Source of the DNA: a virus
Direction: 5' to 3' (one strand)
Length of the DNA: 48,306 bases
Virus record (IMG/VR): IMGVR_UViG_3300001528_000120
Location: 1 to 48,306 of that record
The notes below the pieces were generated by a model, which made no database searches, was not told the origin of the DNA, and saw only the letters and a program-made list of their open reading frames with translations. Both the position numbers and the translations under genes were made by a program. Shown here piece after piece: positions 7,104-40,900 of the stretch (the stretch's first letter is position 1; each line of letters begins with the position of its first letter).

Positions 7104-7384
7104 CAGATAGCACCTCCAAACATAGGCGGCTGGTTTTCCTTCTCAAGCTCCAAGAGGTACTGTGCGTACCACTCAGCCTTATCCAGATCGGTCTGGTTCT
7201 GCGTGGTGTTGTACCGATACCGGTACTTAAACACGTTGCAGCGGCAGAAGGCTGCCACATCAGACTTTCCAAACAGCAGGCACATCTGGTCGATGCACTC
7301 CATGCCACCCTGCTCGTTGTAGTGAGCGGGGTGGTTGACCTTTTCATCGTAGACCTTCTGTGCGTCTGCTTCCTCGTCAGTCAT
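7103..7384 (-). CDS. DUF3310-like protein
   Basis: Motif VNHPAHYN...GMECID, which I recognise as typical of the DUF3310 family. The ATG at 7384 overlaps the nrdD stop. Confidence 0.55.
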   Translation of the reverse strand: MTDEEADAQKVYDEKVNHPAHYNEQGGMECIDQMCLLFGKSDVAAFCRCNVFKYRYRYNTTQNQTDLDKAEWYAQYLLELEKENQPPMFGGAI

Positions 7385-8981
7385 GATTCCCAGTGTTCTC
7401 AGTTCCATAGTGATGTACTCCTTCCAAGTGATTCTTGCCCAATACTCTCATGTGATTACCAGTGTGGGCTACACGGTCATCCAGTTCAGCACGCTTACCA
7501 TCGTTCCATTTGTTGGTAGCACCAACCAAGTAGCCCGTGATGCGCTGGATAAAGTCGATGTTGTGACCACCACACACAGGGCATTCGTTGATGTCAGCGT
7601 CAGCCGTTTCCCAACCGCAATCCAAGCAACGACCGCGAGTGTGGTTGATAGAGCCGTAACCAGCGTTTTTGGCGTGCATACCCACTACAAACTGCTCGAC
7701 TGCCAGCGGGTTCTTGGCAGCATCGCCGTCAAACTCAGCGTAGACGATGTGACCACCCTTGGTCAGTTCGTGGTACGGTGCTTCCACACACAGCTTCTTG
7801 TACATGGTGCACTTATACCAAACAGGTACGTGGTTACTGTTGGTGTAGTAGTCCTTGTCAGTGACGTGCTCCACGATACCAAAATCCTCACGGTCTTTTG
7901 GTACAAATTTACCAGACAGACCTTCTGCCGGAGTGGCAAAGCACGAGTAGTTGAGGTCGTATTTGTCAGAGTAATACTTGGCAAGGCGGTTGATTTCACC
8001 AACGATTTTCAAACCAAGCTGTTGTGCTTCTTCGGATTCGCCGTGGTGATGTCCGGTCAACACGATAAGTGCTTCTGCCAGACCAATAAAACCGATGCCC
8101 AGCGTGCCGTGCTTGAGCACTTTTTCCAACGTGTCATCGTCTTTCAGCTTTTCACAACCCTTCCACATCTTGCTCATGAGCAGCGGGAACTGGTACTTGT
8201 GTGCAGAGCACTGACTCAGATAGCGGTCACGCAGCTGGTTAGCCACCAACTCACCATAGATGTCCAAGTAGGTGAAGAAAAGTTCCAACTCCCCATCAGG
8301 AGTGCTGGAATCTCGCTTTGTCATGAACGCCAGCCTTACCAAATTGATAGTGGTGAAAGAAAGATTACCTCTACCAACGCTGGTTTTCATACCAAACCTG
8401 TCCTCAAACACGCGAGTACGGCATCCCATGGTTGCAGGCTCGTACATGTATCGCTCAGGGTCATCCGCTCTCCACGCTTCGTGCTGGTTGTAGGTGGCAT
8501 CCAAGTTCTCAAAGTTTGGAAAGAAACGTCTGGTTGTGACACGGCAAGCCAGCTTGAACAGGTCGTAGTTCGGGTCACCCTCAAACAGATTCACACCCTT
8601 CTTGAACTTGAAAATCTGAATCGGGAAAATAGCCGTTTCACCATCACCAACACCCTGTTCGGTGGAGAGTAACAGTTCCTTCATGACGCAGCGACCCTCA
8701 GCCGATGTATCCGTACCATAGTTGATGGACGAGAAAACGGTCTGATTGCCCGCTCTGGAATGCATATCATTCATGTTGTGGATGAATCCTTCCATTGCTT
8801 GATGTACTCTACGCACTGTAGCCGCCATACACTCTTTCTGCAAAGGCTCTACGCTTTGTGCGTAGTAGTCATCCACATGTCCGAGGGGTGTAACACCCTT
8901 GAGGGCACATTCTTCCTTGTAAGTAAGGTAAACGTAGGGTGCAAGGTAGAAGTCAAAGGCTGGGATAGCCTGCCCACCCAT
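7377..8981 (-). CDS. nrdD: Anaerobic ribonucleoside-triphosphate reductase, 3' exon
   Basis: GGQAIPAFDFYLAPYV, NMNDMHSRAGNQTVFSSINYG, Zn ribbon CLDCGW...CPVCGG and glycyl-radical motif RITGYL. Confidence 0.85.
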   Translation of the reverse strand: MGGQAIPAFDFYLAPYVYLTYKEECALKGVTPLGHVDDYYAQSVEPLQKECMAATVRRVHQAMEGFIHNMNDMHSRAGNQTVFSSINYGTDTSAEGRCVMKELLLSTEQGVGDGETAIFPIQIFKFKKGVNLFEGDPNYDLFKLACRVTTRRFFPNFENLDATYNQHEAWRADDPERYMYEPATMGCRTRVFEDRFGMKTSVGRGNLSFTTINLVRLAFMTKRDSSTPDGELELFFTYLDIYGELVANQLRDRYLSQCSAHKYQFPLLMSKMWKGCEKLKDDDTLEKVLKHGTLGIGFIGLAEALIVLTGHHHGESEEAQQLGLKIVGEINRLAKYYSDKYDLNYSCFATPAEGLSGKFVPKDREDFGIVEHVTDKDYYTNSNHVPVWYKCTMYKKLCVEAPYHELTKGGHIVYAEFDGDAAKNPLAVEQFVVGMHAKNAGYGSINHTRGRCLDCGWETADADINECPVCGGHNIDFIQRITGYLVGATNKWNDGKRAELDDRVAHTGNHMRVLGKNHLEGVHHYGTENTGNHD

Positions 8982-9817
8982 CCCTTTCGGGACGGACTAT
9001 ATCATACCCTTCACCTTCAAGTGGTAAGGGTCAGCGCACTTCGGATAGTGTCAATCTCTATCCTACTCTACTAAGTGCTACACTCCCTTGTGCGGAGTTC
9101 GCCTTTTCGATAGTCTCTTGACCTTCGTTTTCAAGTATCTCTGTTATTTGATGAACGACAGAACCTTTCTTTTTGTAGAACAAATCATACAGTGTTGGTC
9201 GTGGTACATGTAGTTGCTTCGACAACTCTTTCATAGTACCAGTGACAGTTAAACCGTTTATAAATCGCACTGTGAAAAACCTCTCTTTTCGCACAACCAA
9301 ACCGCTTTTCCAAGCGTGCTTGGAGTTGTCACGCTGAGTGCAAAATTCCAAGTTTTCTTTTCTGTTGTCGGTTTTGCAACCGTTTATATGATTTATTACT
9401 TCGTAAGGTTCGTTTCTTATGAACGCAAGAGCGATTATCTTGTGCACGGTTACTTTAACCTGTCGATTTGTCACCTTCTCGTTCAAAGAAACGTATCTGT
9501 ATCCGTTTTTCAATGTGGACTGCGACTTCACTTTACCAGTGGTCGTGTTTATTATTTGTCCATCATCAGTAACGGAATAACAGTCTGAAATATTCCCTAA
9601 TGAAAATAACGAGTTTACTTTAATCATTTGGTCTCCTTTCTCTAGGAGACACTTGAAAACGCTTGGCACAGGATTGATATGGACGAATCTTTCCCTGTTA
9701 GCCGATAGACTATTGACCATTTCCTGTCATTACTATCCGTTCTATCGACACCCTGCTGACAAACAGGTTCACGCTGTTTTCGACAATCATTTCTGATTGA
9801 AGGTACAGTTATCTATA
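8982..9817 (-). mobile_element. Group I intron interrupting nrdD (boundaries accurate to about 10 nt)
   Basis: The nrdD reading frame breaks after ...LQTVQNEM and resumes at GGQA. Core-like elements UCAGCAGG (9762-9769) and GAUAUAGUCCG (8993-9003). Carries a free-standing endonuclease ORF with its own ribosome-binding site. Confidence 0.75.
9058..9627 (-). CDS. Intron-encoded HNH homing endonuclease (NUMOD4-like N-terminus, HNH_3 core, C-terminal HTH)
   Basis: AAAGGAG ribosome-binding site before the ATG at 9627. Motifs YSVTDDGQII...GYRYVSL and INHINGCKTDNRKENLEFCTQRDNSKHAW. Confidence 0.8.
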   Translation of the reverse strand: MIKVNSLFSLGNISDCYSVTDDGQIINTTTGKVKSQSTLKNGYRYVSLNEKVTNRQVKVTVHKIIALAFIRNEPYEVINHINGCKTDNRKENLEFCTQRDNSKHAWKSGLVVRKERFFTVRFINGLTVTGTMKELSKQLHVPRPTLYDLFYKKKGSVVHQITEILENEGQETIEKANSAQGSVALSRVG

Positions 9818-10429
9818 CATTTCGTTCTGGACTGTTTGCAATGAGATGGCAGCCATAGTAGCAGCGGACTCGATGCGCTTTGCGCCACGATTGGCAGCAT
9901 GGTTGGCACGGAAACCAGTCAGCACCTTGTCGATAGGATGCTGTAAGCAGTTCACGGCACGCATGGCGTAGTAGTCCAAGTCATGTACGTGGATGATGTT
10001 GTCCTTCATAGCCTGCAACACTTCGTCTGACAGCAGGTTTTCTTTGGCGTACTGCTGTGAAGCAATGCTACCAAACTTGTACATCATGCCCGCAGGAGTG
10101 TAAGCATTCATATTGGCATTGTCTCTGGACAGGTTACTTCCCTTTACGTCCACAATCTGAGAGATCAGGATGTTGGCATCACGACCACGCATCTTGTTTC
10201 GATGGTCACGATACTTGATATACCTTTTTGCGACATCCGGTTCGTACTCCATAAGAGCACGTTCCACGTTGTCCTGAATCTCCTCTACCTCGATGTCTCC
10301 ACTGACTCTGAGAGAGATTTCATCAGCTACCTTCTTGGCTGTGTGCTCAGTCGCACCTGCTTTCTGGCACGCTACCACAATCTTGGTGGGGTCAAATTCG
10401 ACCCTTGCACCATCGCGCTTAATTACCAT
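9809..10429 (-). CDS. nrdD: Anaerobic ribonucleoside-triphosphate reductase, 5' exon (ATP-cone plus N-terminal part)
   Basis: AAGGAGG before the ATG at 10429. MVIKRDGARVEFDPTKI is an ATP-cone. The frame runs into intron stop codons after QNEM. Confidence 0.85.
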   Translation of the reverse strand: MVIKRDGARVEFDPTKIVVACQKAGATEHTAKKVADEISLRVSGDIEVEEIQDNVERALMEYEPDVAKRYIKYRDHRNKMRGRDANILISQIVDVKGSNLSRDNANMNAYTPAGMMYKFGSIASQQYAKENLLSDEVLQAMKDNIIHVHDLDYYAMRAVNCLQHPIDKVLTGFRANHAANRGAKRIESAATMAAISLQTVQNEMYR

Positions 10430-10637
10430 GTGTACCCTCCTTACCAAACATATCATCCAGCAGCTTAATTGCCCGCTGTTCGTCCATCGGGACTCCCAAA
10501 TACTCCACAACTGGTGTTGGGAAACCCATATAATGACCCGTTACGTTGAACTCTACTGAGTAGCAGAGACCAAGCTCCTCTAATCGGTCAACCACACCAC
10601 AGGTCTGTCCTACGTCTTTGTGAATCAAGAACTGCAC
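10419..10637 (-). CDS. Hypothetical protein
   Basis: 72-aa ORF whose stop overlaps the nrdD start. No motif recognised and no CxxxCxxC, so it is not NrdG. Confidence 0.5.
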   Translation of the reverse strand: MQFLIHKDVGQTCGVVDRLEELGLCYSVEFNVTGHYMGFPTPVVEYLGVPMDEQRAIKLLDDMFGKEGTHGN

Positions 10638-19995: not shown

Positions 19996-20064
19996 GGGGA
20001 GCAGACGGAGTTAAACCGCCATCTAAGGTCATGAGCCTTTACTCTGTCGTTGAGCTATGCTCCC
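19996..20064 (-). tRNA. Non-canonical tRNA-like element with CAT anticodon loop
   Basis: 7-bp acceptor GGGAGCA/TGCTCCC, loop CTCATGA and T-arm GGCGG/CCGTC. Lacks D-loop GG and T-loop C56, has an A-A mismatch in the anticodon stem, and no encoded CCA. Confidence 0.35.
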
Positions 20065-20142
20065 AAACGAACCTCCCCCGAAGGAGCACGCTTGCAATCG
20101 TGTTGGTTTCCGGTTCAACCGGACTTACCAAGAGGTTTATAC

Positions 20143-20218
20143 TGGCACTCTGGGGTGGACTCGAACCACCGACCGTCTGAGTAACAATCAGATGCGCTAC
20201 CAACTGCGCCACCAGAGT
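20143..20218 (-). tRNA. tRNA-Asn: tRNA-Asn (GTT)
   Basis: Hand-folded cloverleaf: ACTCTGG/CCAGAGT acceptor, GCGC D-stem, TCTGA-TTGTTAC-TCAGA, GGTGG-TTCGAGT-CCACC, encoded CCA. 76 nt. Confidence 0.85.
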
Positions 20219-20224
20219 ATGTTT

Positions 20225-20255
20225 GGTGAGGGATGATATGTCAGCATCCCTCACC
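20225..20255. other. 11-bp perfect stem-loop between the fibre-like operon and tRNA-Asn
   Basis: GGTGAGGGATG-atatgtcag-CATCCCTCACC. No U-run follows on the minus strand, so it may be a processing or stability element rather than a classical terminator. Confidence 0.6.
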
Positions 20256-20284
20256 GAGAGAAAAAAGAGAAAGGAGGTGATACA

Positions 20285-20749
20285 TCACCAAGCTACCCAA
20301 TTGTACGTGCCTACCAAAATAGGTGATGTTTGGGTAACTGTAGAAAGAGAGAATCCGTTTGAGCCGAAAGCGAGGTGGTCATTGGCATTGCCAATCGTAA
20401 AATCCGACCACGTTGTTCTGCTGGTTGAAGCGGTCTTAATGTAGTCCACAACACCAGAAAACAGGTCGGTGCGTGCCCAACCAAACACTCCACGTGCGGA
20501 GGTTGTGGTCTCGCTTTCGGAATAGAAAACCAACACATTGGTTGGCTTGAAGCCAGTGTTAACCGACTTCGTTTGGGCGGTCTGCGTCATGGTGAAAGAA
20601 CCAGTCTTGACAGACGGTATCTTGAGCACCAATGCCGCCAGCGCATCCAAGGTAGTGTTGGACGGCGGTGTTACGCCCTGTGCCGTTAACGCAGCTACCA
20701 AATCATGTTTGGCAGTGGTCAGGCGGTTTATTTCCGACTGTACACTCAT
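20285..20749 (-). CDS. Fibre-like small structural protein (paralogous N-terminus to the 20753-21019 product)
   Basis: 154 aa. N-terminus MSVQSEINRLTTAKHDLVAALTAQGV is parallel to MSIASEITRISNQRDTLRTNLIGLGL. Confidence 0.55.
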   Translation of the reverse strand: MSVQSEINRLTTAKHDLVAALTAQGVTPPSNTTLDALAALVLKIPSVKTGSFTMTQTAQTKSVNTGFKPTNVLVFYSESETTTSARGVFGWARTDLFSGVVDYIKTASTSRTTWSDFTIGNANDHLAFGSNGFSLSTVTQTSPILVGTYNWVAW

Positions 20750-20752
20750 GGC

Positions 20753-21019
20753 TTAAATCGCCGCAAGCGCAGTCTCAATCGAGTTGGACAGTGTGACTTT
20801 ACCAGTGCCGGAATGCAGTCCTGCCGGAACAGTGTAGCTCTCAGCCGTCATACCATCAATGGTTGCTGCGACAGCACCACGGTTTTCGATATTACCAACA
20901 GCAGATACGCAATCTTCCAGCTTGGCGGTTGACTCAGTTACCAAACCAAGACCAATGAGATTGGTGCGCAGTGTGTCACGCTGGTTACTGATTCGAGTGA
21001 TCTCAGATGCAATACTCAT
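20753..21019 (-). CDS. Fibre-like small protein carrying the SYTVPxGxHxGxGKV motif
   Basis: AAGGAG ribosome-binding site. SYTVPAGLHSGTGKVTLSN matches SYTVPQGYHDGSGKVAIS in the 46079-46651 product. Confidence 0.55.
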   Translation of the reverse strand: MSIASEITRISNQRDTLRTNLIGLGLVTESTAKLEDCVSAVGNIENRGAVAATIDGMTAESYTVPAGLHSGTGKVTLSNSIETALAAI

Positions 21020-21031
21020 AAAACAAGCTCC

Positions 21032-21193
21032 TTATATTTCACGGAGCAGCGTTTCAACTTCTCCCGCTAGTTGATACACTGCGTTGGACGATACTGGCAA
21101 CGGGTTGTCCGACTCGACCAGCTCTGTAATATCCACTGATATAACACCGTTGTCGATGATGATGCCCATTCCAGCTTCCAGTTCTGTTGCCAT
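21032..21193 (-). CDS. 53-aa fibre-motif protein, below the ORF-track cut-off
   Basis: Hand translation: MATELEAGMGIIIDNGVISVDITELVESDNPLPVSSNAVYQLAGEVETLLREI. Starts 17 nt after tRNA-Lys. Confidence 0.45.
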   Translation of the reverse strand: MATELEAGMGIIIDNGVISVDITELVESDNPLPVSSNAVYQLAGEVETLLREI

Positions 21194-21209
21194 GGTAAAA
21201 CCTCACTTG

Positions 21210-21285
21210 TGGTGCGCCATGCGGGGCTTGAACCCGCGACCCCCAGATTAAAAGTCTGGTACTCTACCAACTGAGTTAATGACAC
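21210..21285 (-). tRNA. tRNA-Lys: tRNA-Lys (TTT)
   Basis: Hand-folded cloverleaf: GTGTCAT/ATGGCGC acceptor (2 G-U pairs), ACTC/GAGT D-stem, CCAGA-CTTTTAA-TCTGG, GCGGG-TTCAAGC-CCCGC, encoded CCA. 76 nt. Confidence 0.85.
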
Positions 21286-22045: not shown

Positions 22046-23068
22046 ATGAAGAATCCGAACGGCTACGGCTCTGTCATTTGTTTGGATAAGACTGGGAAGC
22101 GGCGCAGGAAGCCGTGGGCAGTCAGAATCACAGTTGGTTTTGACGAGTCAGGCAAGCAGATCACCAAATATCTCGGTTACTACAAGTCGCAGAAGGAAGC
22201 AGCCATTGCGCTGGCGCAGTATCACATGGTTGGTTTGGACGTAGACGCAACCAAGCTCACCTTCGAGGACGTGTTCGAGGAGTGGCTTAAATCCACCGAG
22301 CACCGGATGACACCGCAGAACCAAGGCTCATACAGAGCAGCTTTCAGGCTTGTTGGTAGCTTGGCTAAGAAGCGGTTTAAGGACATCAAGTCCAATCACC
22401 TCCAAACTGCTTTGGATAGTGTGAAGCGTCAGTACAACACCAAGAAAAAGGTGCGCTCTATGCTCAAACAAGTTTGGGACTACGGGGTGAAAAACGACTA
22501 CGTGTTGAAGAACTACGCTGTTGGGTTGGAGCTTGATGGCAAACAGGAAGATGTCGGCAAGGTGTTCACAGCGCAAGAAATCAAAATGCTTTGGCAGCAC
22601 GCCGATGACTATCACGTCCAACTTGTTTTGGTGATGATCTACACTGGCGTTCGGGCAAACGAGCTGTTAAAAATAAACACGGCGAACACGTTTTTATCTG
22701 ACCACTACTTCATAACTGGTTCTAAGACGGACGCGGGGAAAGATAGGATAATTCCTATACATGACGCTATCCTGCCTTTCGTCCACAACATCATGGTTAA
22801 CCACCATCATTTGGCAGAATTTGACGGGCACGGAGTCCATTACAACACCCTGTATAAATGGTTTGGTGATGTCATGAAGCGGTTTGGTTTCGACCACAAA
22901 TTGCACGATACACGGAAAACAACCGTGTCACTGCTACACTCAGCCGAAGTACCAATCGAGACAATCCGATTTATCGTTGGTCACGCTCAACAGGGTATCA
23001 CCGCCCAAGTCTACTTGAAGAAAACCGCAGCGGAACTGGTGGCTGCCATCAACAAAATACCAGTTTAA
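22046..23068 (+). CDS. int: Tyrosine integrase (site-specific recombinase, phage integrase family)
   Basis: 340 aa with GAAGGAG ribosome-binding site. AP2-like arm-binding N-terminus. Catalytic pattern GVRANEL...HDTRKT...GHAQQGITAQVY. The only plus-strand gene. Confidence 0.9.
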   Translation: MKNPNGYGSVICLDKTGKRRRKPWAVRITVGFDESGKQITKYLGYYKSQKEAAIALAQYHMVGLDVDATKLTFEDVFEEWLKSTEHRMTPQNQGSYRAAFRLVGSLAKKRFKDIKSNHLQTALDSVKRQYNTKKKVRSMLKQVWDYGVKNDYVLKNYAVGLELDGKQEDVGKVFTAQEIKMLWQHADDYHVQLVLVMIYTGVRANELLKINTANTFLSDHYFITGSKTDAGKDRIIPIHDAILPFVHNIMVNHHHLAEFDGHGVHYNTLYKWFGDVMKRFGFDHKLHDTRKTTVSLLHSAEVPIETIRFIVGHAQQGITAQVYLKKTAAELVAAINKIPV

Positions 23069-23262: not shown

Positions 23263-24048
23263 TTACTTGGTACGCTTCCATGTGCGGACAACGAAGTACG
23301 GCGGCATGTTGTTATGCGCATTACCAATACCCGCTCCGTTCTGGGCAAGTGTACCGCCATAGTTTTTAGTGCTAGTTGTAACGTAGTCTGGTTTGACCAA
23401 ATACGTGCCACTCGTAGGAGACCAACTAGAAGATGATCCGTCATTGTTGACATACATAGAGTGCGTATGACTTGGCATTTCCTGTACAGTCAGTTTATGA
23501 GTGGCTTCGCCGCCCGTGTCACCAATCGTATAGTCGTTGCTGTCAGAGAGCAGGAATTTACCGCTAATCTGCTCCCACGTACCACCCCATTTGACTTCTG
23601 GGTCAAACTTTGAGTCGGTTGTTTGGTAGATCGTACCGACTGGGTAGAAGAGGTCGAGAACCTGCTCTTTGGATAACTTAGTATCGTTCAGCACTTTGCC
23701 CTTCGCCGCCGACAGTGCATGGTTCAAATAGGTGCTATCAAGCGAGTCATCAACGGTCACTCGGATACTAGACAACGGTACAGACGCATATTCGTCATAC
23801 GTGCCATCAGAGTAAGCGGTCGCGCTGCGCAGTTTCAATTCCATGTTGTACACGTCAAGCGACATTCGCGTTGGAGTAGTTACGCCACCGCTCGTCACGG
23901 TCAGCATAGTGCCAGATTTGGAGCTGTCCCATGTTTTGTCCAGCTTGTTTGCAATGCTGGTACGAGCTTTCGCATCAACTACCTCATAGCGGTACTCATC
24001 GCTGATACCGTCAATATAGCTCATCTCTCTACTTGGCTTATCTGCCAT
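23263..24048 (-). CDS. Tail fibre protein with phage tail-collar domain
   Basis: GAGGAGG ribosome-binding site. GGEATHKLTVQEMPSHTHS...GNAHNNMPPYFVVRTWKRT is the tail-collar signature. Confidence 0.7.
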   Translation of the reverse strand: MADKPSREMSYIDGISDEYRYEVVDAKARTSIANKLDKTWDSSKSGTMLTVTSGGVTTPTRMSLDVYNMELKLRSATAYSDGTYDEYASVPLSSIRVTVDDSLDSTYLNHALSAAKGKVLNDTKLSKEQVLDLFYPVGTIYQTTDSKFDPEVKWGGTWEQISGKFLLSDSNDYTIGDTGGEATHKLTVQEMPSHTHSMYVNNDGSSSSWSPTSGTYLVKPDYVTTSTKNYGGTLAQNGAGIGNAHNNMPPYFVVRTWKRTK

Positions 24049-24062
24049 GCTACGTCACCTCC

Positions 24063-24833
24063 TCAGACCGCTCTCACGTATTTAATGGATACCCAGCCGT
24101 TGCCTTCGTCAGCATACGATTTGAGAAGTCCCCACATGTTACCATGCTCGTCTGCCACCTGTTCCACGATGGTAAACGCTTCGTCTTTACCAATTACACC
24201 AACGACCGGATACTTTGTACCCACGCCGCCACGAATGTTCAGCGAGTCGCAGTTATGGGTTTTCGCCAGCCAGCCAGTAGAGCCAGTTGCAACGTTGCTG
24301 GACGTATTGGTCAAACGGCTCTTGAAGTTACTCCACTTAGAGCTGTCAGAGCCAATCCAACCAGACCAAGCTGGACACTCTTTACCAGTTACGTCAAAGT
24401 GACGATATACGTTGGAAGCAGCGATACCGTATCTTGCCATAAGCAGTTTGGTCAGCTCCACTGCATTCTTAACGGTTTCCTCAGCAATTGCGCCACCGTT
24501 GGAACACATCTCAATGCTGATAGAGTTGGCATTGGTAATCTTACCATACATCTTACCGCCACCAGTACGACCACAGTTGGAATACTTACTGCCGCCAACA
24601 GAGTACGCGATTTTGTTATCGTCAATGCTCTGGTAAACGCTGGTCTTATCCACAAAGTAGTGTGCACCAGCCTTGCGGGTGTTGCTGCCGTGTGCGCTGA
24701 AATAGTTCGCGTTGGCTTTTGCGGTATCAGTCGTGTTGCCAGTGTAGTGCAAGACAATGTACTTGATGCTGCCAGTAGAACGAGTGCCGCCGTAACTGAT
24801 CTTTTTTGCTTTCAAAGTCGTGTTGATGTCCAT
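24063..24833 (-). CDS. Endolysin: N-acetylmuramoyl-L-alanine amidase (Amidase_2/PGRP) plus C-terminal SH3-like wall-binding domain
   Basis: IKYIVLHYTGN...AGAHYFVD...ISIEMC...CPAW. C-terminal LNIRGGVGTKYPVVGVI...GWVSIKYV. Confidence 0.8.
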   Translation of the reverse strand: MDINTTLKAKKISYGGTRSTGSIKYIVLHYTGNTTDTAKANANYFSAHGSNTRKAGAHYFVDKTSVYQSIDDNKIAYSVGGSKYSNCGRTGGGKMYGKITNANSISIEMCSNGGAIAEETVKNAVELTKLLMARYGIAASNVYRHFDVTGKECPAWSGWIGSDSSKWSNFKSRLTNTSSNVATGSTGWLAKTHNCDSLNIRGGVGTKYPVVGVIGKDEAFTIVEQVADEHGNMWGLLKSYADEGNGWVSIKYVRAV

Positions 24834-27476: not shown

Positions 27477-28559
27477 TTACGTCACCGCCTTTAATGTTAC
27501 AGTACCCAGCACAGGTACTACTTCGTCACCAAGGGTAAGATTGCCACTCGACCCGTTCAGAGTCAGTGATTCGACCGATTTGATGCCGTCCACCGTCATG
27601 AGCAGCGCACCCAGTTTCATAAAGTTCACGCTGCTGTCCACGTAAGCGATCTCGGCAAAGAAATCAGTCAATACTTTGGAAGTATCAATCGTTGCCACAT
27701 CGGTGTAGCCGTCAGCCAGTTTAACATTAGCTACCACGTTGATCTTTTGCTCCGTGGCAGTAGTACAAGTTACCTTTGCACCAATCGGAGCTTGCCCCTC
27801 TCCCAAACCTTTGGAATCAGGGTCAAGGTACTCCTGAAACTCTGCCAGCAGTGAGGATGATACTGCTCTGCCCGCCGCTGAAATGACAGATACCTTCACT
27901 GTACCAACGCCGTTCCAGCACGGAAAGACTTTAGAGCGACCAACGCCCTCGAACTCATCTGCCCAGAACTTATACTGTGCGACATTACCGTCCGTGTGGG
28001 AATTGTTGACTGCGTAAAAATAGCGAATACGCATGGCATCCGTATCTTCCTCGTCCTCGCCCGCCTTGATTACATCGGTGAGCTGCGCCCACTCCAAATC
28101 CTGCACGTAGTCAATCGGTGTCAGATTACCAAACGTATTGTTTGGGGCTGTACCTGCTGTGTCACACAGGAGCTTGTAGTGGTAGTATTCGTCACTACCG
28201 CTCGGCTCTTTGATAAGCTCAATGACGCTGTAGTTATACAGGTCGTTGTTAAAGCGCGTGCCAATCTCAATTGGGATATTGAACTCGCCCTCAAACTCGC
28301 CATATGTCGCATCCTGCGCTACCAATCCAATCTCGTGCAATTTCTCTACCAAACCTTCTCTGGTAGCTGTCTCGGCAAAGGTTTCTTTTGCGAACGTGTC
28401 CTGCTCAGAGTACAGGTTGGCAATCTCCGTAGCGCAAGCCACGAGGGCGTTGTAAGCCAACGAACTTTGGCGGGTATCCACTTCTGGGTATCTACTCGCC
28501 ATGTCATCCAGCAGTCTGTTCAAAACGCTATCATAATCGGTATTGTCGAAAGAAATCAT
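27477..28559 (-). CDS. Baseplate J-like protein (XkdT)
   Basis: 360 aa. Position and N-terminal pattern (FDNTDYDSVLNRLLDDM...EVDTRQSSLAYNALVA) fit baseplate J. Confidence 0.7.
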   Translation of the reverse strand: MISFDNTDYDSVLNRLLDDMASRYPEVDTRQSSLAYNALVACATEIANLYSEQDTFAKETFAETATREGLVEKLHEIGLVAQDATYGEFEGEFNIPIEIGTRFNNDLYNYSVIELIKEPSGSDEYYHYKLLCDTAGTAPNNTFGNLTPIDYVQDLEWAQLTDVIKAGEDEEDTDAMRIRYFYAVNNSHTDGNVAQYKFWADEFEGVGRSKVFPCWNGVGTVKVSVISAAGRAVSSSLLAEFQEYLDPDSKGLGEGQAPIGAKVTCTTATEQKINVVANVKLADGYTDVATIDTSKVLTDFFAEIAYVDSSVNFMKLGALLMTVDGIKSVESLTLNGSSGNLTLGDEVVPVLGTVTLKAVT

Positions 28560-28966
28560 ACTGTCACCTCCGTTTCAATCGTGGTATCACCAAAATCGGA
28601 ACTGACAGTGAATGATACTGCCAACGACCTACCGTTTTGGTCAAAGTTAAAATCAGTCACCGCGTAGATTCTATCATCTCGCAGTAGGGCATCTGTAACT
28701 CGCAGTTGTAATTCTGCCATCACAAAGTCCATCGGCTGACCGATCAAATCTACCAAACCAACACCGTACTCCTGATCGTAGATGATGTGTTGGTTTGGTT
28801 CAGTGTTCAAAATGAAATATATGCTCTGTTTCAGCTCGTCCAAGCCGGATGCCTTTGCGCCACATTTGGTCATGTCCGCTGATAGCTTCCAGCCACCGGA
28901 CGGAGCGATAAGCGATTCGATGTTGTCCATCACATCGTCATCGTACAATGTATTTGCTGGAATCAA
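28556..28966 (-). CDS. XkdS-like (DUF2634) baseplate protein
   Basis: TTG start after AAGGTG. GLDELKQSIYFILNTEPNQHIIYDQEYGVGLVDLIG. Confidence 0.65.
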   Translation of the reverse strand: MIPANTLYDDDVMDNIESLIAPSGGWKLSADMTKCGAKASGLDELKQSIYFILNTEPNQHIIYDQEYGVGLVDLIGQPMDFVMAELQLRVTDALLRDDRIYAVTDFNFDQNGRSLAVSFTVSSDFGDTTIETEVTV

Positions 28967-28970
28967 AGTA

Positions 28971-29588
28971 TCACACCTTTAGAAAAACTTCTGCGTAGAT
29001 TACACCCTTGCGCATGGCTTCCGCGTGCGTCTTTACTGCTACGTCAATTCGGTTGCCCTTAATAGCACCACCAGTATCTTCTGCGTGGTACACCTGACCG
29101 TTGATCTTGACGTAAGACCGCAGCTTGATTCGCTTCGGGTCTACGGCACATACGCCAGCTCGTACCTCTGTACCAAGCGCGGTCTTGTAAGGCGCACCGG
29201 CATTGCAAATGTGCGGGTATTTCTCAGCGCAATAGTGCGTAATCTTAAACCGACCAAGCGATTTCCAGTTGCCTGTGTCGGCAATGCTCGTGCCACCGCT
29301 TTCATCCGTACCACCAATATATTTGGTGGAAGAACTGGTCTGATCTTCGTACTTCACACGGGTCGATAGAATCAGATATTTCTGACCGCCTTGATAGCGA
29401 ACCAGCACCACCTTCTCGCCAACGTCAACCTTGGAGTCTATTACCAAAAACGGTTTGGTGAGAATCAGAGTGTCACTGACTTTGACCTCAATCGGGTCAG
29501 CATTGGTGACAGTGCCATATAAGATTTTACACGGATTACTAGCGTCAATGGCTTCTACCGCTGCACGCTTAATAAGGTCTATGTTCAC
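28971..29588 (-). CDS. Spike paralogue 3: DUF2577-like N-terminal domain fused to a 3D (RlpA/MltA-like) domain
   Basis: GTG start. N-terminus IDLIKRAAVEAIDASNP...QGGQKYLIL. C-terminus FKITHYC...CAVDPKRIKL...AEDTGGAIKGNRIDV. Confidence 0.75.
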   Translation of the reverse strand: MNIDLIKRAAVEAIDASNPCKILYGTVTNADPIEVKVSDTLILTKPFLVIDSKVDVGEKVVLVRYQGGQKYLILSTRVKYEDQTSSSTKYIGGTDESGGTSIADTGNWKSLGRFKITHYCAEKYPHICNAGAPYKTALGTEVRAGVCAVDPKRIKLRSYVKINGQVYHAEDTGGAIKGNRIDVAVKTHAEAMRKGVIYAEVFLKV

Positions 29589-30313
29589 GTTGCACCTCTG
29601 CTCTTTAAGAATGATTCGGGGTCAATGGTGGCGGGATAGTGATATGCACCTTTGTGCACTTCCAAATGCAGGTGCTTGCCATAGGCTCGACCAGTCTCAC
29701 CTTCAATTCCAACCACAGTATTTTTGGTGACGGTCTGCCCCGCCTTGACGTACACCGTGCTCATGTGAGCGTACAAACTGACATAGCCATCTGGGTGCTG
29801 AATCAAAACGTGGTTGCCGTAAGCTGAACCCTTGCTGTTCCTGCCAATAACCTTGCCATCCGCAATCGGATGAATCTGCTTGCTACCCGTACCAACAATG
29901 TCGATACCGCAGTGGTAGCCGCACGCCCACGAACCCTTCTTACCAAACTTGGTGCTGATACGATAACCGTTTCTATATGGGTACTGATAAGTAGTGGACG
30001 AGCTGGTGGAAATGGTTGTATCAGTTTCGCCACCAACAATGTTGATATACTTGGTCTGGTCAACTACTGCTGTGGTACTACCAAACACAACGTACTTCTG
30101 ACCGCCCTGCTCTCGGAGCAGTGGCACTTTGTCCCCTATATTTATTGTACCGTTTACGACCAAAAATGGCTGGGTCAAAATCAAATTATTACTGATTTTC
30201 ACTGCCGGAGGGTTGGCAGAGGTCACTTCACCAAACGATAACAGGAGTGGATATGTGGCATCGTAGGCTTCGACCGCCGCTTTCTTGATGGTCTCAATTA
30301 TTCCGGTTGCCAA
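29585..30313 (-). CDS. Spike paralogue 2: DUF2577-like N-terminal domain fused to an M23 metallopeptidase
   Basis: TTG start after GAGGTG. N-terminus IETIKKAAVEAYDATYP...QGGQKYVVF. C-terminus YHCGIDI...LIQHPDGYVSLYAHM...GKHLHLEVH. Confidence 0.8.
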   Translation of the reverse strand: MATGIIETIKKAAVEAYDATYPLLLSFGEVTSANPPAVKISNNLILTQPFLVVNGTINIGDKVPLLREQGGQKYVVFGSTTAVVDQTKYINIVGGETDTTISTSSSTTYQYPYRNGYRISTKFGKKGSWACGYHCGIDIVGTGSKQIHPIADGKVIGRNSKGSAYGNHVLIQHPDGYVSLYAHMSTVYVKAGQTVTKNTVVGIEGETGRAYGKHLHLEVHKGAYHYPATIDPESFLKSRGAT

Positions 30314-30322
30314 ACTATCACC

Positions 30323-31015
30323 TCAATCGTTTAAGTATCTGCCTGCTCCTGCGTAGTGGCTGGCGTAGTAAGAATTGCTCAACGCCACCCGAACTACACC
30401 CGTACTTGGGTTGGCTGCGTGAATCATGTAGCCACCACCAATATACATGCCAACGTGGGTGATGCCGCTGCGACCAGTTGTTCCGGCAAAGAACACCAAG
30501 TCACCAACCTTGAGTTCGGACTTACTGATTTTCTTTGCGCCAGCGTACTGGGCGGCTGCTGTGCGTGGGATGGTCATGCCGATCTGTTTATAGCACCAAA
30601 GCATCAAGCCGGAGCAGTCAAATTTCATAGAACCAGTTGCACCCCAAACGTAAGGGCAACCAATCTTGGATTTGACCAGAGATAGTAAAGCGTTACGCTT
30701 TGTGCTCAGACTTCCAGCGTCCTCCACGTACTCGTTACCACCTATGTTCGTTGTAACCGTTCCAGTAATGCGTTGTGTGCGGTTTCCCAGTACCAAATAC
30801 TGTTGTCCACCCTGTTTGCGGATTACTGATACCGTGTCACCCGCTGCGACTGTACCCGTCAGGATGACAAACTCTTTGGTCAGCGTTATCGTGTCACTGA
30901 TCTTGATAGCCAGCGGGTTAACGCTCTCGACTTTACCAAAACGTAGCTGGACGGGCTGTTCAGCTTCCCACGCTTCCACTGATGCCTGTTTGATTACATC
31001 TAGTAATTCGCTCAT
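30323..31015 (-). CDS. Spike paralogue 1: DUF2577-like N-terminal domain fused to an NlpC/P60 endopeptidase
   Basis: N-terminus LDVIKQASVEAWEAEQP...QGGQQYLVL. C-terminus CPYVWGATG..FDCSGLMLW...GDLVFF...THVGMYIGGGYMIHA. Confidence 0.8.
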   Translation of the reverse strand: MSELLDVIKQASVEAWEAEQPVQLRFGKVESVNPLAIKISDTITLTKEFVILTGTVAAGDTVSVIRKQGGQQYLVLGNRTQRITGTVTTNIGGNEYVEDAGSLSTKRNALLSLVKSKIGCPYVWGATGSMKFDCSGLMLWCYKQIGMTIPRTAAAQYAGAKKISKSELKVGDLVFFAGTTGRSGITHVGMYIGGGYMIHAANPSTGVVRVALSNSYYASHYAGAGRYLND

Positions 31016-31989
31016 GATGTTACGTTACTTCCAATCAGGGTCAAGTCCATCGTGTACTGGTCGAGGTTAAACTTGTGTACCGCCTTGTCAATAACCATGT
31101 AGTTGTTAAACTTGCGTGCACCAGTATCAATCTCAGTTGGGATTGACGCACCAGCACGACACCGATAATCACCAAACGCATCCTTGAGTTCCATCTTCTC
31201 GGTCTTACGGTTGTACAGGCTAAGTAGCTGCTCTGCCTTTTTGTTGGCGTTGGCGTTGGATTGCAAGGACTCCGTGTACTGCAAGATGCCCCACTGCTTC
31301 TGCGTGGAAGTGGATTCCTTCACGTAGGTTTCTCGCTTGTTGGTTTCATCGTTGTCGTAGTACAGGATAATGCGGTTGTATGTCTCCTCGTCAATAGATG
31401 AGGTGTACGAGTAGTCCTCGGCAGCGTCATCTGCAAACAGCAGATTCACCTTCATGGAGGAGATGTTCTTGAGGGTTAGGCTACCATAATCATCGTAGAG
31501 AACGTACAGTGATCCGGTCTGCATAACCGTCAAGTCCAAAGCATTCTGCACAATGTCAAACAAGGTTTGGTCATCTTCCAAGCGAGAGCCAATTACGTAG
31601 TTGGTCTTTTCCAACGTTCCTGTTTTCAGCGCAAAGTCTTTGGCGATCATCGTTACGAGCTGGTCAGCACGCTTGTTGGTGTACTGATACGTGTGCTTGT
31701 TCTTGAAATATCGCAATTGGTCATATGCGGTGCACTTCACCTCGCCGCTCTTGTCAAACTCTCGCTTAAACAAAAAACCGTAAAAAATCTTGTGCATGTT
31801 ACCAGTTTCGCCGTACTTGAAAGCAACGGCATCGCCTTCTGCGATTTGGTTGGAAGCATCGTCCTGCTGAATCGTGAAGGTGAGCTTAGAGGGAGAGCCT
31901 TTGCGGTTTGTCTCCCATTCGATGTTCTCGTGAACAGTCGGGTAAATCAGGTCGTTACCGTGCCTGATTGCCAAAGATACAACAGCCAT
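31012..31989 (-). CDS. XkdQ-like baseplate hub / late-control-D-like protein
   Basis: 325 aa with AAGGAGG ribosome-binding site. IEWETNRKGSPSKLTFTI pattern and position after the LysM protein. Confidence 0.65.
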   Translation of the reverse strand: MAVVSLAIRHGNDLIYPTVHENIEWETNRKGSPSKLTFTIQQDDASNQIAEGDAVAFKYGETGNMHKIFYGFLFKREFDKSGEVKCTAYDQLRYFKNKHTYQYTNKRADQLVTMIAKDFALKTGTLEKTNYVIGSRLEDDQTLFDIVQNALDLTVMQTGSLYVLYDDYGSLTLKNISSMKVNLLFADDAAEDYSYTSSIDEETYNRIILYYDNDETNKRETYVKESTSTQKQWGILQYTESLQSNANANKKAEQLLSLYNRKTEKMELKDAFGDYRCRAGASIPTEIDTGARKFNNYMVIDKAVHKFNLDQYTMDLTLIGSNVTS

Positions 31990-32001: not shown

Positions 32002-32799
32002 TTACTTCGGAATAATCAATTTGGTGTTTGGGTAAATCCAGTGACCATTACCAGATGATTTTCGACCACGTTTCTTAGCGGCGTTCTCGATAGTACTCTT
32101 GTTGGCATTGTATATCTTGGTATACAAAGAGTATTTTCCGTAGAACTTTTTACTGATAGTTTGCAACGTATCACCCTTTTTGACCGTGTAATAGGTCGTT
32201 TTGGTGGTAGTGGTTGGCGTTTTCGTGGTGGTACTCGTTGGTTTGTTTACCACAGTACCGTTGGAAGTGATTGACTTTCTTGTGGAAGAATACGACTTGT
32301 ACTGCTTCAAAGAGATGTCAACCAAAATATCATCACCGTTGTCGGAATCTTCTTTGATGGTATATTCCTCCAACGTAACCATCATGGACGTGGTTTCAAA
32401 GTGACCGATACCACCACCGGACAATCGGTGAAGTCTGGTTACGTGGAAACTGAAAGCCATTTTATTGGTTTTCAGCGTTTCCAAAACACCAAGATAATAG
32501 TCAACCGCGTACAGTTTGCTTGTACACACATACGGTTGCTTCCTACGAGGGAATCTGGCTGTAAACGAAAGCTCGGTTAGACCAGCTTTCTTCGGCAGGT
32601 TGATTTCACCCTCGTTAATCAGCGTGACGGTCTCGTTTTTGTTTTGGATGCTGATCTCCAACGATTCCGGTGTAACCGGAAACGTCAGAGTATCAGTCAG
32701 CGTTGTTTTACCAAAATAGAAGATGTAGGCGTTGCCACTTGAGACCTGTTTTAAGGTTGGCGAATAATAAAAGTAGCCATTTGGTAATGATAATGCCAT
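32002..32799 (-). CDS. XkdP-like tail protein with C-terminal LysM domain
   Basis: AGGAGG before the ATG at 32799 (MALSLPNGYFYY). C-terminal YYTVKKGDTLQTISKKFYGKYSLYTKIYNAN...IPK. Confidence 0.75.
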   Translation of the reverse strand: MALSLPNGYFYYSPTLKQVSSGNAYIFYFGKTTLTDTLTFPVTPESLEISIQNKNETVTLINEGEINLPKKAGLTELSFTARFPRRKQPYVCTSKLYAVDYYLGVLETLKTNKMAFSFHVTRLHRLSGGGIGHFETTSMMVTLEEYTIKEDSDNGDDILVDISLKQYKSYSSTRKSITSNGTVVNKPTSTTTKTPTTTTKTTYYTVKKGDTLQTISKKFYGKYSLYTKIYNANKSTIENAAKKRGRKSSGNGHWIYPNTKLIIPK

Positions 32800-32809: not shown

Positions 32810-35050
32810 TTAGTAATGAACGCCTGCTGCCACAACACCAAGCTCCTCACGGAGTCTGCTGGACAGCGTACCAATGATACCATCAATATCTTGGTCGTTG
32901 TTGATAGCGTTGTTATTGACCATCTCGACTTTGATTTCAGCGGTCGTGAAGCGGTTAATCGCATCACGCTCTGCCAACGTAATCATGTAGTCGAAGTTAT
33001 CGTCAATGTTGTCCATCTTTTTGTCGATGTTTTTGGTGTTGTCGGCAATGTCTTTCAGCTTCGAGCCGGTGCTACCAGAGCCACCCGAACCACCTGTGCC
33101 ACCTGTACCGCCGTTACCAGCTGCCGCAGGGGACGCACCAATGTTGGAATAGTCATCTGGGTTGATAGCTGCTGTCGGCAGCTCACCAACCTTGGTTACA
33201 CCAGAAGTGGTTTTGTCTTTGATTTTATCAACCAGACCAGCCACCTTTTTCTTGAGCGAGCCAGTCTTATCATTGACCCAGTTATTTGCGCCCATGAATG
33301 TACCTGAGTAGGAAGTGTGCTTGAGTTCTGGAAGGTTGAACTTGTGCATTACCTCCTGATAACTACCGTTACCATACTTTTTGGCAACAATGTTAACCGA
33401 ACTGGATAAACCTTTTCGCCAACCTTCTACAGTACTAGCAAGGTTAGAACCAAACACCGCGTCAATCGCCTGTGCAAGTGCTTGGAGCATACTCAGACAA
33501 TTGTCAACCATGTCACCAAACAAATGTACGATTGACGCGATTGGGTCGTTAAACACGTTACCAAAGAAGTTGGCAAACTGCGCAACGTAATTCCAAAGTA
33601 CGCCAAAACCACCCATGATTACCGACAGGGCAGATTTGATTACATTCCAAACAAACGCAACCGCCGTGGCGATGATACCAACCACCGTGCCGATAATGCT
33701 AACGTGTTCACCAGATGCCTTGGCGTGAGCATCAGCCAATGCCCAAATCAAACCGACCACCAATATAATGGCTGTGACTACGAGTACAAACGCATTAGCC
33801 TGTGCCAAAGCAGAAATCCACGCGACAGCAGCAAGAATCAAGTACCAAGCGCACAACAGCACGATTTTAACGACAAACCATGCTACCTGTACACCCACTG
33901 ACAGAAATGCCCAGATGCCCTTCAATGCCCAGATGACCATGGACGCTACGATCAAGCTGATAAAGAATACGATGATGCCGCTGGCAATCTGCCAATGCTG
34001 GGCACAGAAGTCAATGCCCATTTGCACTATGTTGAGTACCACAATAATCGCGTTGGCAGCGTACTGCAAAGCAATCGTGGCGTGGGATGCGATTTGCCGG
34101 AAAGAGTCACTGTTAAGGATGTCGTTCAATTTCTGGGATACCGGCTCGAACGCCTTGATAGCATCGTTTTTGAACATAGTCCACATCTGACCAAACGTCA
34201 GTCTGGTTTTGGCAAATCGTTTGTCGATCTCATCACCAGCGTTCAAGATAGCCGCTACTACCAAATCAGATGTGATCTCGCCGTCAGACGCAAGGTCTTT
34301 CAACGATGCGTCTGTATTCAGTACGCCCTGTGCGTATTTCTCGATTGCCTGATAAGCAGCTGTCGCACCTTCTCGTACAGACCGCAACTCATCGCCCTGT
34401 AATACGCCAGAGGACAACGCCTGAATCATCTGATACATGGACGATGCCTGCTCTGCCTGAGATGCACCGGAAACGGCATACGCCTTACCCATGATCTCTT
34501 GGAAGCGAATCGCATTGTCAATGTTGTTCTTAAACGCACCACTTGCCAACGACATTGATTTACCAACGTTGGACATCATGTCGGTGTAACCGGTTCGGGC
34601 ACGCTGGGAAGCAGTGTAGATTTTATCCAACGACTGTTGAGTCTCTTTTGAGTTCCAACCAGTGCCGTTCGCGTCACCAATACGGTTTTTGGCAGATACG
34701 ATGGTATCGGACGTGGAAATCGCCGCTTTCGCACCCATAACACCAAGATAGGTGGCGGCAAGTCTCGCTACGGTTTGCGTCAACGCATTGGTGTTGCGGT
34801 TGAGCGATGTTACCGTGCGAGACATGTTAACGAACTGTGAACTCAGCGGCTTCATACTCAAGCTGCTAAGTTTACCGCCAGAGCGCACCACTTTGTCAAC
34901 GTCCCTAGCCATGCTGGAAAAGGTTCGGGACGCGCTCGTGCCCATCCGAGAAAACGCAGAGGTTTGCTTGACGGTGTTCCGATGCATTTTGGACAAAGCT
35001 GGGCTAACCTTGTCCCTGACCGTGATAGTCACAGTAATGTTATTTGCCAT
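32810..35050 (-). CDS. Tail tape measure protein
   Basis: 746 aa with helical N-terminus, central multi-TM block and Gly-rich stretch GNGGTGGTGGSGGSGSTG. Position after the chaperone pair. Confidence 0.85.
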   Translation of the reverse strand: MANNITVTITVRDKVSPALSKMHRNTVKQTSAFSRMGTSASRTFSSMARDVDKVVRSGGKLSSLSMKPLSSQFVNMSRTVTSLNRNTNALTQTVARLAATYLGVMGAKAAISTSDTIVSAKNRIGDANGTGWNSKETQQSLDKIYTASQRARTGYTDMMSNVGKSMSLASGAFKNNIDNAIRFQEIMGKAYAVSGASQAEQASSMYQMIQALSSGVLQGDELRSVREGATAAYQAIEKYAQGVLNTDASLKDLASDGEITSDLVVAAILNAGDEIDKRFAKTRLTFGQMWTMFKNDAIKAFEPVSQKLNDILNSDSFRQIASHATIALQYAANAIIVVLNIVQMGIDFCAQHWQIASGIIVFFISLIVASMVIWALKGIWAFLSVGVQVAWFVVKIVLLCAWYLILAAVAWISALAQANAFVLVVTAIILVVGLIWALADAHAKASGEHVSIIGTVVGIIATAVAFVWNVIKSALSVIMGGFGVLWNYVAQFANFFGNVFNDPIASIVHLFGDMVDNCLSMLQALAQAIDAVFGSNLASTVEGWRKGLSSSVNIVAKKYGNGSYQEVMHKFNLPELKHTSYSGTFMGANNWVNDKTGSLKKKVAGLVDKIKDKTTSGVTKVGELPTAAINPDDYSNIGASPAAAGNGGTGGTGGSGGSGSTGSKLKDIADNTKNIDKKMDNIDDNFDYMITLAERDAINRFTTAEIKVEMVNNNAINNDQDIDGIIGTLSSRLREELGVVAAGVHY

Positions 35051-40230: not shown

Positions 40231-40806
40231 TTACTTGTTCAGTTTAGCCGCGATTGCTTCTGCCAGTGTTTTTGGGGTGGTGGGAGAAGTCGGGTTTCCA
40301 CCGCCGGATGCCGGAGTGATACCACGCATACCGTTGGAGGTGAACACGCGCTTGTAATCATCGGTTTCAGCCAGTGCTGTCAGCTGTTCATCAAGTCCGG
40401 TAAGTTTACCGTCCTCGCTGATGTCCAACTTGTCCATGTCGATGAGAGCACGCGCCAGCTTCACGCTGGAAGCACCCTTTTCGCGCAGATACTCGTCAGC
40501 CAAGTATCCCAGTTTAACACCCTTAATATCGGAGTCGTATTTGGTCTTGGCGGTTGCAGCGTCCGCTTTCAGCGTTTCAATCTGCTTGGTCAGGTCTTCG
40601 ATAGTTGCATCGCTACCTTCCAGCTTTTTCAGACCAGCGATGGTCTTGTCACGCTCTGCCAAATCATTGGTCAGGGTCGTAACCTTCGTTTCCAGCGTGC
40701 TTGCCTTGCCCTGTTCGCGGGCAATGTCTTTACCGTTCTCAGCCATAATCTGATTGATGACGGTCTGATCTTCAATACCAAGGCTTTTCAAAAATTCAGA
40801 TTTCAT
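40231..40806 (-). CDS. Scaffolding protein (GP20-like)
   Basis: GGAGGAG before the ATG at 40806. Coiled-coil and acidic sequence (MKSEFLKSLGIEDQTVINQIMAENGKDIA...). Confidence 0.7.
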   Translation of the reverse strand: MKSEFLKSLGIEDQTVINQIMAENGKDIAREQGKASTLETKVTTLTNDLAERDKTIAGLKKLEGSDATIEDLTKQIETLKADAATAKTKYDSDIKGVKLGYLADEYLREKGASSVKLARALIDMDKLDISEDGKLTGLDEQLTALAETDDYKRVFTSNGMRGITPASGGGNPTSPTTPKTLAEAIAAKLNK

Positions 40807-40900
40807 AAAATACTCCTCCACTCTGCTAGGCTTTTTAGGTCGTTGCCATGACCTACAGTCGGCATTCTTTAGGTCTTGCCGATAGACCAGATAGTTTCAA

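Follow-up and report, generated by a model that had tools for sequence, protein, structure and literature searches.

Three paralogous DUF2577 spike genes with different predicted wall hydrolases in the contractile tail module of a gut phage

How a contractile tail passes through the 30-100 nm wall of a Gram-positive host is treated as an open question in recent structural papers: diffocin bears a pair of enzymes on its hub (PMC11329794), and phiCD508 apparently proceeds in a purely mechanical way. A locus in the IMG/VR virus record IMGVR_UViG_3300001528_000120 (the whole stretch of 48,306 nucleotides analysed here is called the window) puts this question in an unusual form. Its positions 28971-31015, on the minus strand, are occupied in the list of open reading frames by exactly three contiguous genes, here named A, B and C, and each of them joins an N-terminal module of the DUF2577 (XkdR-like) spike family to a different predicted peptidoglycan hydrolase, of the NlpC/P60, M23 and 3D families respectively. 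The window is a near-complete genome of a temperate myophage, with its genes mostly on the minus strand, and this phage is a gut phage with a PBSX-like contractile tail. What would such a phage do with three spike genes, when one is the norm? Our answer has two parts that differ in firmness. The composition of the three proteins makes it very probable that A, B and C are virion-associated wall hydrolases carried by the spike; the fuller statement, that these spike subunits are moreover co-assembled into mixed trimers, is one on which we find the evidence evenly balanced.

Spike modules and their enzymatic cargo

The initial annotation, made from the letters alone, had described three tandem XkdR-like paralogues with alignable N-termini, and this description holds. 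The first 80 residues or so of A, B and C align without a gap, with 25 invariant columns, and over this module B and C are respectively 45% and 41% identical to A. The Pfam DUF2577 profile (PF10844) scores 53.9 bits in A (residues 8-54), 41.2 in B and 53.7 in C for a curated cut-off of 22 (all the Pfam domain calls on the three proteins exceed their curated cut-offs), the match being in each case a single stretch over profile positions 1-47/49 of 96, and all three proteins match PHROG 579 with E values of 1e-13 to 1e-18. The residues conserved across the family, namely the helix motif IK.A..EA, P21 and QGGQ, are kept by A, B and C alike. The genes lie between that of the hub (YqbQ/XkdQ) and that of the sheath initiator (XkdS), and a DUF2577 gene occupies this same slot in 77 prophage loci.

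An AlphaFold2 model of the A module (predicted local distance difference test, pLDDT, 82) consists of a helix, residues 2-19, followed by a six-stranded barrel, and that of C (pLDDT 80) again has a helix and a small barrel, with the linker at residues 85-102 predicted to be disordered. When the isolated N-module of A was submitted to Foldseek, proteins made of a helix and an oligonucleotide/oligosaccharide-binding (OB) fold were retrieved weakly (E 0.03-0.13), among them the phiCD508 needle and the Mu spike (template modelling, TM, scores of 0.47 and 0.50, at E 0.07-0.13). A profile of 29 DUF2577 sequences found as its best match in the PDB the diffocin spike CD1369 (8v3w_C), the match being colinear along the entire chain but marginal, at E=0.017; with a profile built from A, B and C, the search of the PDB returned nothing relevant. 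CD1369 is a trimer, each chain having an N-terminal helix and an OB-fold barrel into which a beta-hairpin is inserted; the hub encloses the helix, which forms a bundle with the C-terminal part of the tape measure protein, and the hairpin holds a metal at its tip through His72 and His74 (PMC11329794). The trimeric state that had first been supposed for related spikes has here its concrete counterpart, at the marginal score just given.

A, B and C are built without this hairpin: the alignment has a gap in them where longer DUF2577 proteins hold an insert of 20-80 residues, often rich in histidine. On this alignment, none of the three modules has the hairpin with which the diffocin spike binds metal at its tip. 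In its place stands a common extension of about 15 residues, with a hydrophobic residue at its end and then GG, after which come the linker and the enzyme; enzyme-free paralogues in other phages stop right after this GG, and so mark the boundary of the module. Short DUF2577 members without a hairpin exist elsewhere, for example in phiMMP01, where the protein has 86 residues (locus L114, 3489-3749). More generally, the cultured C. difficile myophages that carry a hydrolase on their hub have a short, hairpin-less spike, and the metal-tipped needle is found in the hydrolase-free phiCD508 and in diffocin.

The three catalytic families that had been read from the C-termini were recovered by domain searches, with their catalytic motifs intact. 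In A, NlpC/P60 (PF00877) scores 102.8 bits, and the triad Cys134 (in DCSG), His187 and His199 is present; in B, Peptidase_M23 (PF01551) scores 81.1 bits, with zinc ligands in H134-CGI-D138 (HxxxD) and H214-L-H216 (HxH); in C, 3D (PF06725) scores 36.9 bits over residues 146-197 for a cut-off of 23.8, and Asp150, Asp171 and Asp182 are present, as they are, without variation, in 14 homologues. Because the model of C matches in Foldseek the diffocin hub-hydrolase 8v3w_H (the best match), MltA of E. coli and YuiC of B. subtilis, with E between 1e-4 and 1e-3 overall and from 2e-4 to 1e-3 for the latter two, its 3D domain is, as modelled, a double-psi barrel of the lytic-transglycosylase type, and lytic transglycosylase activity is predicted for it. 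The NlpC/P60 part of A is 41% identical to that on the phiMMP01 hub-hydrolase, and the best PHROG match of A is phrog_400, a profile in which a YqbQ hub is followed at the C-terminus by NlpC/P60. Measured against the orthologues in L017, a related locus, the ratio of non-synonymous to synonymous substitution rates (dN/dS, or omega) is about 0.045 for each of the three genes, with dS between 0.9 and 1.6, which rules out that they are pseudogenes; the spike module (omega 0.03-0.11) and the enzyme half are both constrained. In another related locus the orthologue of A (L007:3200-4276) is 358 residues long, with some 130 extra residues between the spike module and NlpC/P60 (247-352), for which no Pfam family match was found.

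It is worth considering where related machines keep such enzymes. The C. difficile myophage phiMMP01 and its relatives (phiC2, CDMH1) share with the window a PBSX-like baseplate module and a short hairpin-less DUF2577 spike, but they have one bare spike gene, and their glucosaminidase and NlpC/P60 domains are on a hub of 656 residues. Diffocin (PDB 8v3w; PMC11329794) resembles the window in its tail type, in the order of LysM tube initiator, hub, small spike and sheath initiator, and in having glycan-cleaving and NlpC/P60 domains in the region of the tip; it differs in that both enzymes sit on the C-terminus of the hub CD1368, in three identical copies, while its single spike gene is bare and codes for a protein with the His72/His74 metal hairpin that the modules of the window lack. 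In the window it is the hub that is bare, as the Pfam YqbQ match spans residues 23-318 of 325 and no hydrolase domain was found on the protein, and the enzymes are on three different spike paralogues, M23 being extra. To judge from these domain architectures, enzymes borne by the hub in related machines sit here on spike subunits, with M23 added. The locus would represent a third design besides the hub-borne enzyme pair and the mechanical needle, one in which the enzymes have been shifted from hub to spike and spread over paralogous subunits.

Copy number and cargo among relatives

That tail modules of this type normally have one DUF2577 gene, as the initial annotation had stated, was borne out on two sides. 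A sample of 80 prophage loci, drawn from GTDB species-representative genomes and anchored on the YqbQ profile, gave one copy in 77, directly after the hub and coding for 82-237 residues, none detected in 3 and several in 0. Among cultured phages the module matched 17 of 50,697 records, at one place each; these are phages of C. difficile, C. tetani and Geobacillus, in which the annotation under the match reads DUF2577, xkdR-like or hypothetical and never names a hydrolase, and the only locus inspected among them, that of phiMMP01, holds a bare gene for 86 residues. The window, with its three genes, departs from the rule of a single gene per tail module. In two prophages, from a Ruminococcus metagenome-assembled genome and from Ruminococcus sp. 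CAG:403 (L078:4923-5609 and L102:4932-5645), NlpC/P60 is nested within the single DUF2577 spike gene. In L102 DUF2577 covers residues 14-235 and NlpC/P60 residues 95-171, which is the position of the tip hairpin, a third route for placing a hydrolase on a spike, by tip insertion as opposed to C-terminal fusion.

A profile search with the N-module in a word-indexed protein collection had returned only bare DUF2577 proteins, of 66-143 residues; the impression that no fusions exist was overturned when the full-length C query matched hundreds. The DUF2577-3D fusion matched 466 clusters in a collection of metagenome and genome proteins, the best 120 of them all with two domains, and several source samples of this family are gut or faecal metagenomes; the search of the 50,697 phage records turned up no cultured representative. 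The other two fusions are rare: three clusters of DUF2577-NlpC/P60 close to A, and about six (at 50% identity) of DUF2577-M23 among 1.84 billion representatives. Scans with an alignment of C gave no matches in GTDB genomes, 7 loci in IMG/VR and 9 in JGI metagenomes, and it is because these loci were few that our survey of gene context rests on 17 distinct phages, the window included, in which the genes that precede the 3D copy can be seen. As for the window itself, the phage collection held no match of near-identical DNA, and an exact-sequence look-up of the A protein returned no record.

The commonest set in this survey is a pair, M23 with 3D, in nine phages (L001, L014, L023, L024, L105, L106, L108, L115 and L116). 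The full set of NlpC/P60, M23 and 3D occurs in four (the window, the L017 group, L007 and L008), a bare copy with M23 and 3D in two (L021, L117), an NlpC-like copy with 3D in one (L002), and a bare copy with 3D in one (L022). The 3D copy stands last in 17/17 and alone in 0/17, and in every relative the spike genes are flanked, as in the window, by those of the hub and of the sheath initiator. Overlap with the stop codon of the hub gene (ATGA) is always found at the first copy, and the later copies have ribosome-binding sites of their own. The enzyme-free copies, which stand beside enzyme-bearing ones, code for 95-97 residues (L021:3986-4273, L117:2516-2803 and L022:3682-3975).

In a neighbour-joining tree the modules group by paralogue type and not by phage. 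Those linked to 3D form a separate deep clade, and in the phages with two genes they often have S-[ST]-G-N instead of QGGQ; those encoded upstream belong to a second class, which carries M23, NlpC/P60 or nothing, attached just after the GG boundary. Since the modules cluster by type across phages, the paralogues are, as far as the sequences can tell, old and kept distinct. That A, B and C arose by recent duplication, or were made alike by gene conversion, is ruled out by this clustering and by the DNA of the module-coding segments, which are 66-70% identical to one another, and this over stretches of 44-50 nucleotides only. Up to the GG boundary the modules of L001 (with M23) and L002 (NlpC-like) are nearly identical, which points to a swap of cargo just after the conserved GG, where M23, NlpC/P60 or nothing follows a near-identical module. 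Enzymes on the hub or on the spike of contractile tails are already known. What we did not find, in the literature searched or in the cultured phage records, is a pair or trio of paralogous spike genes, differing in their enzyme or having none, in a phage that has also lost the needle hairpin and the hub enzymes; even without these losses, such a pair or trio was not described in that literature.

Assembly of the subunits at the tail tip

We can picture the function of the locus as follows. In this temperate PBSX-like myophage, A, B and C would be co-transcribed and would supply the central tail spike with its subunits, each made of an N-terminal helix and an OB-like barrel, a flexible linker and one peptidoglycan hydrolase: a Cys-His-His NlpC/P60 endopeptidase acting on stem peptides, a zinc M23 endopeptidase, and a lytic transglycosylase of the 3D/MltA type. 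By analogy with diffocin, the hub trimer would receive the N-helices, which would there abut the C-terminal end of the tape measure protein, and, because the residues common to the family are retained in A, B and C, all three modules are expected to use the same docking site on the hub. We infer that the proteins are present in the virion with their enzymes riding at the tail tip; contraction of the sheath would then drive these enzymes into the thick Gram-positive wall, where local cutting of peptide and glycan bonds would open the path of the tube. Such a tip would be a chemical drill more than a needle, since its modules have no rigid metal-binding hairpin. With the paralogues in mixed trimers, a single virion would dispose of several bond specificities; a 1:1:1 composition is possible in the phage of the window, and relatives with two genes would need 2:1.

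Parts of this picture have parallels in other machines. Phage T4 has an OB fold under the hub and a hydrolase borne by the spike, as proposed here, with no sequence relationship to DUF2577. In T4 gp5, the N-terminal OB-fold domain docks under the trimer of the gp27 hub, and behind it the central spike carries a peptidoglycan hydrolase, a lysozyme; gp5 is the product of one gene, a homotrimer, with a C-terminal beta-helix needle capped by gp5.4. Paralogous spike subunits with different C-terminal effector domains, or none, are a feature of the VgrG proteins of type VI secretion. Among these 'evolved' VgrG spikes, V. cholerae has VgrG1, VgrG2 and VgrG3, the last with a peptidoglycan-degrading domain, and mixed trimers have been proposed. 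The VgrG proteins belong, however, to a bacterial secretion system, they are gp27-gp5 fusions unrelated to DUF2577, and VgrG1 and VgrG2 of Serratia do not mix (PMC4924876). The Staphylococcus phage 812, a myophage of a Gram-positive host, also has wall-acting enzymes on its tail tip, but on both the spike gp112 and the hub gp110: a GlpQ-like phosphodiesterase 'petal' on the former and a CHAP 'cleaver' on the latter are proposed to act on the wall in sequence (PMC13433997). Its spike differs in being a homotrimer of one large protein, with other folds and no set of paralogues.

The most serious competitor to mixed trimers is that each paralogue forms its own homotrimer, and that a burst is a mixture of virions with interchangeable tips, each with three copies of one enzyme, as a form of bet-hedging across wall chemotypes. 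Known spikes are, as a rule, homotrimers; the N-modules, at 41-45% identity and with type-specific sequences, could prevent mixing; the Serratia proteins just cited form no heterotrimers (PMC4924876); and the nested NlpC/P60 of the Ruminococcus prophages makes a homotrimeric enzyme spike appear viable. Yet the enzyme-free copies kept in three phages would then yield virions without a hydrolase, and the 3D copy should sometimes be met alone, as loss of a partner ought to be tolerated. Glycan and peptide cuts are, furthermore, expected together on one patch of wall, as has been proposed for the diffocin hub (PMC11329794). Enzyme-free copies fit badly with a tip built by each gene for itself and well with mixed trimers, in which they would fill a position. 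It is on these two grounds, the 3D copy that is never alone and the enzyme-free copies that are retained, that we favour co-assembly, and we consider interchangeable tips rather unlikely. Co-assembly is further favoured by the conserved residues through which all three modules should dock in the hub, and by the age of the paralogues, whose modules have stayed distinct by type.

Several observations nevertheless weigh against mixed trimers. Two paralogues and not three are what most relatives have (9/17 phages have M23 and 3D), so a strict rule of one gene per position of the trimer fails, and 1:1:1 cannot be the stoichiometry in general. The diffocin spike CD1369 (PMC11329794) and gp112 of phage 812 (PMC13433997) are trimers of one protein, as are the hub and the tape measure protein that hold the former (PMC11329794), and a threefold-symmetric docking site, if it is the same here, would not alone dictate a fixed mixture of subunits. 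That paralogous VgrG spikes of Serratia stay unmixed (PMC4924876) counts here as well. Structural support for the spike fold is also weak, with E at or above 0.03 in Foldseek and 0.017 in the comparison of profiles with the PDB. The spikes of T4, Mu and phiCD508 are homotrimers too, and we know of no heteromeric central spike described before in a phage.

Were the subunits co-assembled in spite of this, the tip would break the threefold symmetry that is assumed for all known spikes, and those who engineer tailocins or phages would find in it a naturally modular scaffold on which to mount chosen sets of wall-cutting enzymes. A stricter form of the proposal may be put forward tentatively, and with the expectation that it claims too much: the central spike would be an obligate, symmetry-broken heterotrimer of one A, one B and one C, and the family of two or three paralogues, with enzyme-free 'filler' subunits, would program the enzyme load. 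If this were true, one tail tip would display two peptidases, of the NlpC/P60 and M23 families, along with a lytic transglycosylase, and contractile tail tips would be seen to have a general means of setting which enzymes they carry.

A third arrangement has one paralogue as the spike proper, probably the first, which is translationally coupled to the hub, and the others docked elsewhere in the baseplate or stacked as extra trimers, with more than three subunits per virion. It would account for the overlap with the hub stop codon (ATGA) being always at the first copy, with separate ribosome-binding sites at later ones, and for the 3D-type module being a separate, older clade in which S-[ST]-G-N often replaces QGGQ in the two-gene phages; in diffocin, besides, the hydrolase domains dock on the periphery of the wedge (PMC11329794). 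Against this, all modules of the window keep the family-wide residues, including those of the N-helix that is enclosed by the hub in diffocin, a further site at which such a module could dock is not known, and stacked OB-fold trimers are without precedent in this type of tail. We think this improbable, and more so than interchangeable tips.

That A, B and C are not virion proteins at all, being extra lysis enzymes or exolysins with the spike module as a leftover, has in its favour nothing direct beyond a resemblance of their enzymatic domains to those of endolysins in PHROG matches, and it is very hard to believe in view of the place of the genes within the baseplate operon, from hub to sheath initiator, in every relative, of the strong purifying selection on the spike module (omega 0.03-0.11), and of the separate existence of a holin-endolysin cassette; the virion role of spike-borne hydrolases is preferred because the spike slot is kept in relatives and the spike module is constrained.

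The locus and the rest of the genome

The positions of the relevant features are collected in Table 1. From upstream to downstream, the tail module has the order tape measure, LysM protein, YqbQ hub, A, B, C, sheath initiator, baseplate J and a gp48-like gene. The ATG start of A overlaps the stop codon of the hub gene (ATGA); B begins with TTG, 9 nucleotides after A, behind a GAGGTG ribosome-binding site of its own; and C begins with a GTG that overlaps the stop codon of B, the two genes sharing 4 nucleotides. Since the three genes are so tightly packed or overlapping, and no terminator-like site was found on the minus strand within them, they are presumably co-transcribed.

Table 1. Features of the spike locus and of other tail and lysis genes, in coordinates of the window
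Feature	Positions	Strand	Size or residues	Basis
Spike paralogue A: DUF2577 + NlpC/P60 endopeptidase (predicted)	30323..31015	-	230 residues
A, spike module	30731..31015	-	residues 1-95	AlphaFold2 model, alignments
A, NlpC/P60 catalytic domain	30341..30661	-	residues 119-225	Pfam PF00877, E=1.2e-29
Spike paralogue B: DUF2577 + M23 metallopeptidase (predicted)	29585..30313	-	242 residues
B, M23 catalytic domain	29648..29917	-	residues 133-222	Pfam PF01551, E=6.7e-23
Spike paralogue C: DUF2577 + 3D (MltA/YuiC-like lytic transglycosylase, predicted) domain	28971..29588	-	205 residues
C, 3D / double-psi beta-barrel domain	28974..29267	-	residues 108-205	Pfam PF06725, Foldseek
Tail hub (YqbQ/XkdQ, gp27-like)	31012..31989	-	325 residues	Pfam PF24032, E=2.8e-104, residues 23-318
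LysM XkdP-like protein	32002..32799	-		LysM domain only
Tape measure protein	32810..35050	-		Pfam TMP_3
Sheath initiator (XkdS/gp25-like), directly downstream of C	28556..28966	-		Pfam PF10934
Endolysin (Amidase_2 + SH3_3)	24063..24833	-		Pfam
Integrase	22046-23068

The sequence of the hub gave no match in the PDB. In diffocin, helices of the C-terminus of the tape measure protein bind the N-helices of the spike (PMC11329794), and by analogy we infer the same contact in the phage of the window. The LysM XkdP-like protein is likely, again by analogy, to be a peptidoglycan-binding initiator of the tail tube and not a hydrolase, its diffocin counterpart CD1367 being the tail-tube initiator (PMC11329794). 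This bears on the count of four wall-cleaving chemistries that had been made for this phage: it stands for NlpC/P60, M23, 3D and the Amidase_2 endolysin, and it has to be given up for the LysM protein as a contributor. The endolysin, which supplies the fourth of these chemistries, belongs to the separate holin-endolysin cassette and serves lysis, not entry.

Other genes of the window code for a D5-type primase, portal, terminase, sheath, tube and an XkdN-like chaperone. A tail-fibre-like gene (Phage_fiber_rpt and Gp10_C; 23263-24048, minus strand) lies downstream of the holin-endolysin cassette, apart from the baseplate operon, and the same detached placement is seen in L017-L020. Three phage tRNAs (Met-CAT, Asn-GTT and Lys-TTT) are found on the minus strand at 19996-21285, near the integrase region. 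The gene nrdD, for an anaerobic ribonucleotide reductase (7377-10510, minus strand), is split exactly at position 103/104 of the Pfam profile: the open reading frame at 9809-10510 holds the ATP-cone and NrdD positions 1-103, that at 7377-8981 holds positions 104-562, and a homing-endonuclease gene (HNH_3 and NUMOD4; 9058-9720) lies between the two. At this split Rfam detected no group I intron at its gathering threshold. Elsewhere in the window, Rfam recognized a GP20-b RNA motif (40827-40888, minus strand; 56.8 bits for a gathering score of 36.2), which lies just upstream of the open reading frame at 40231-40821, whose counterpart in L017 carries a Phage_scaffold domain.

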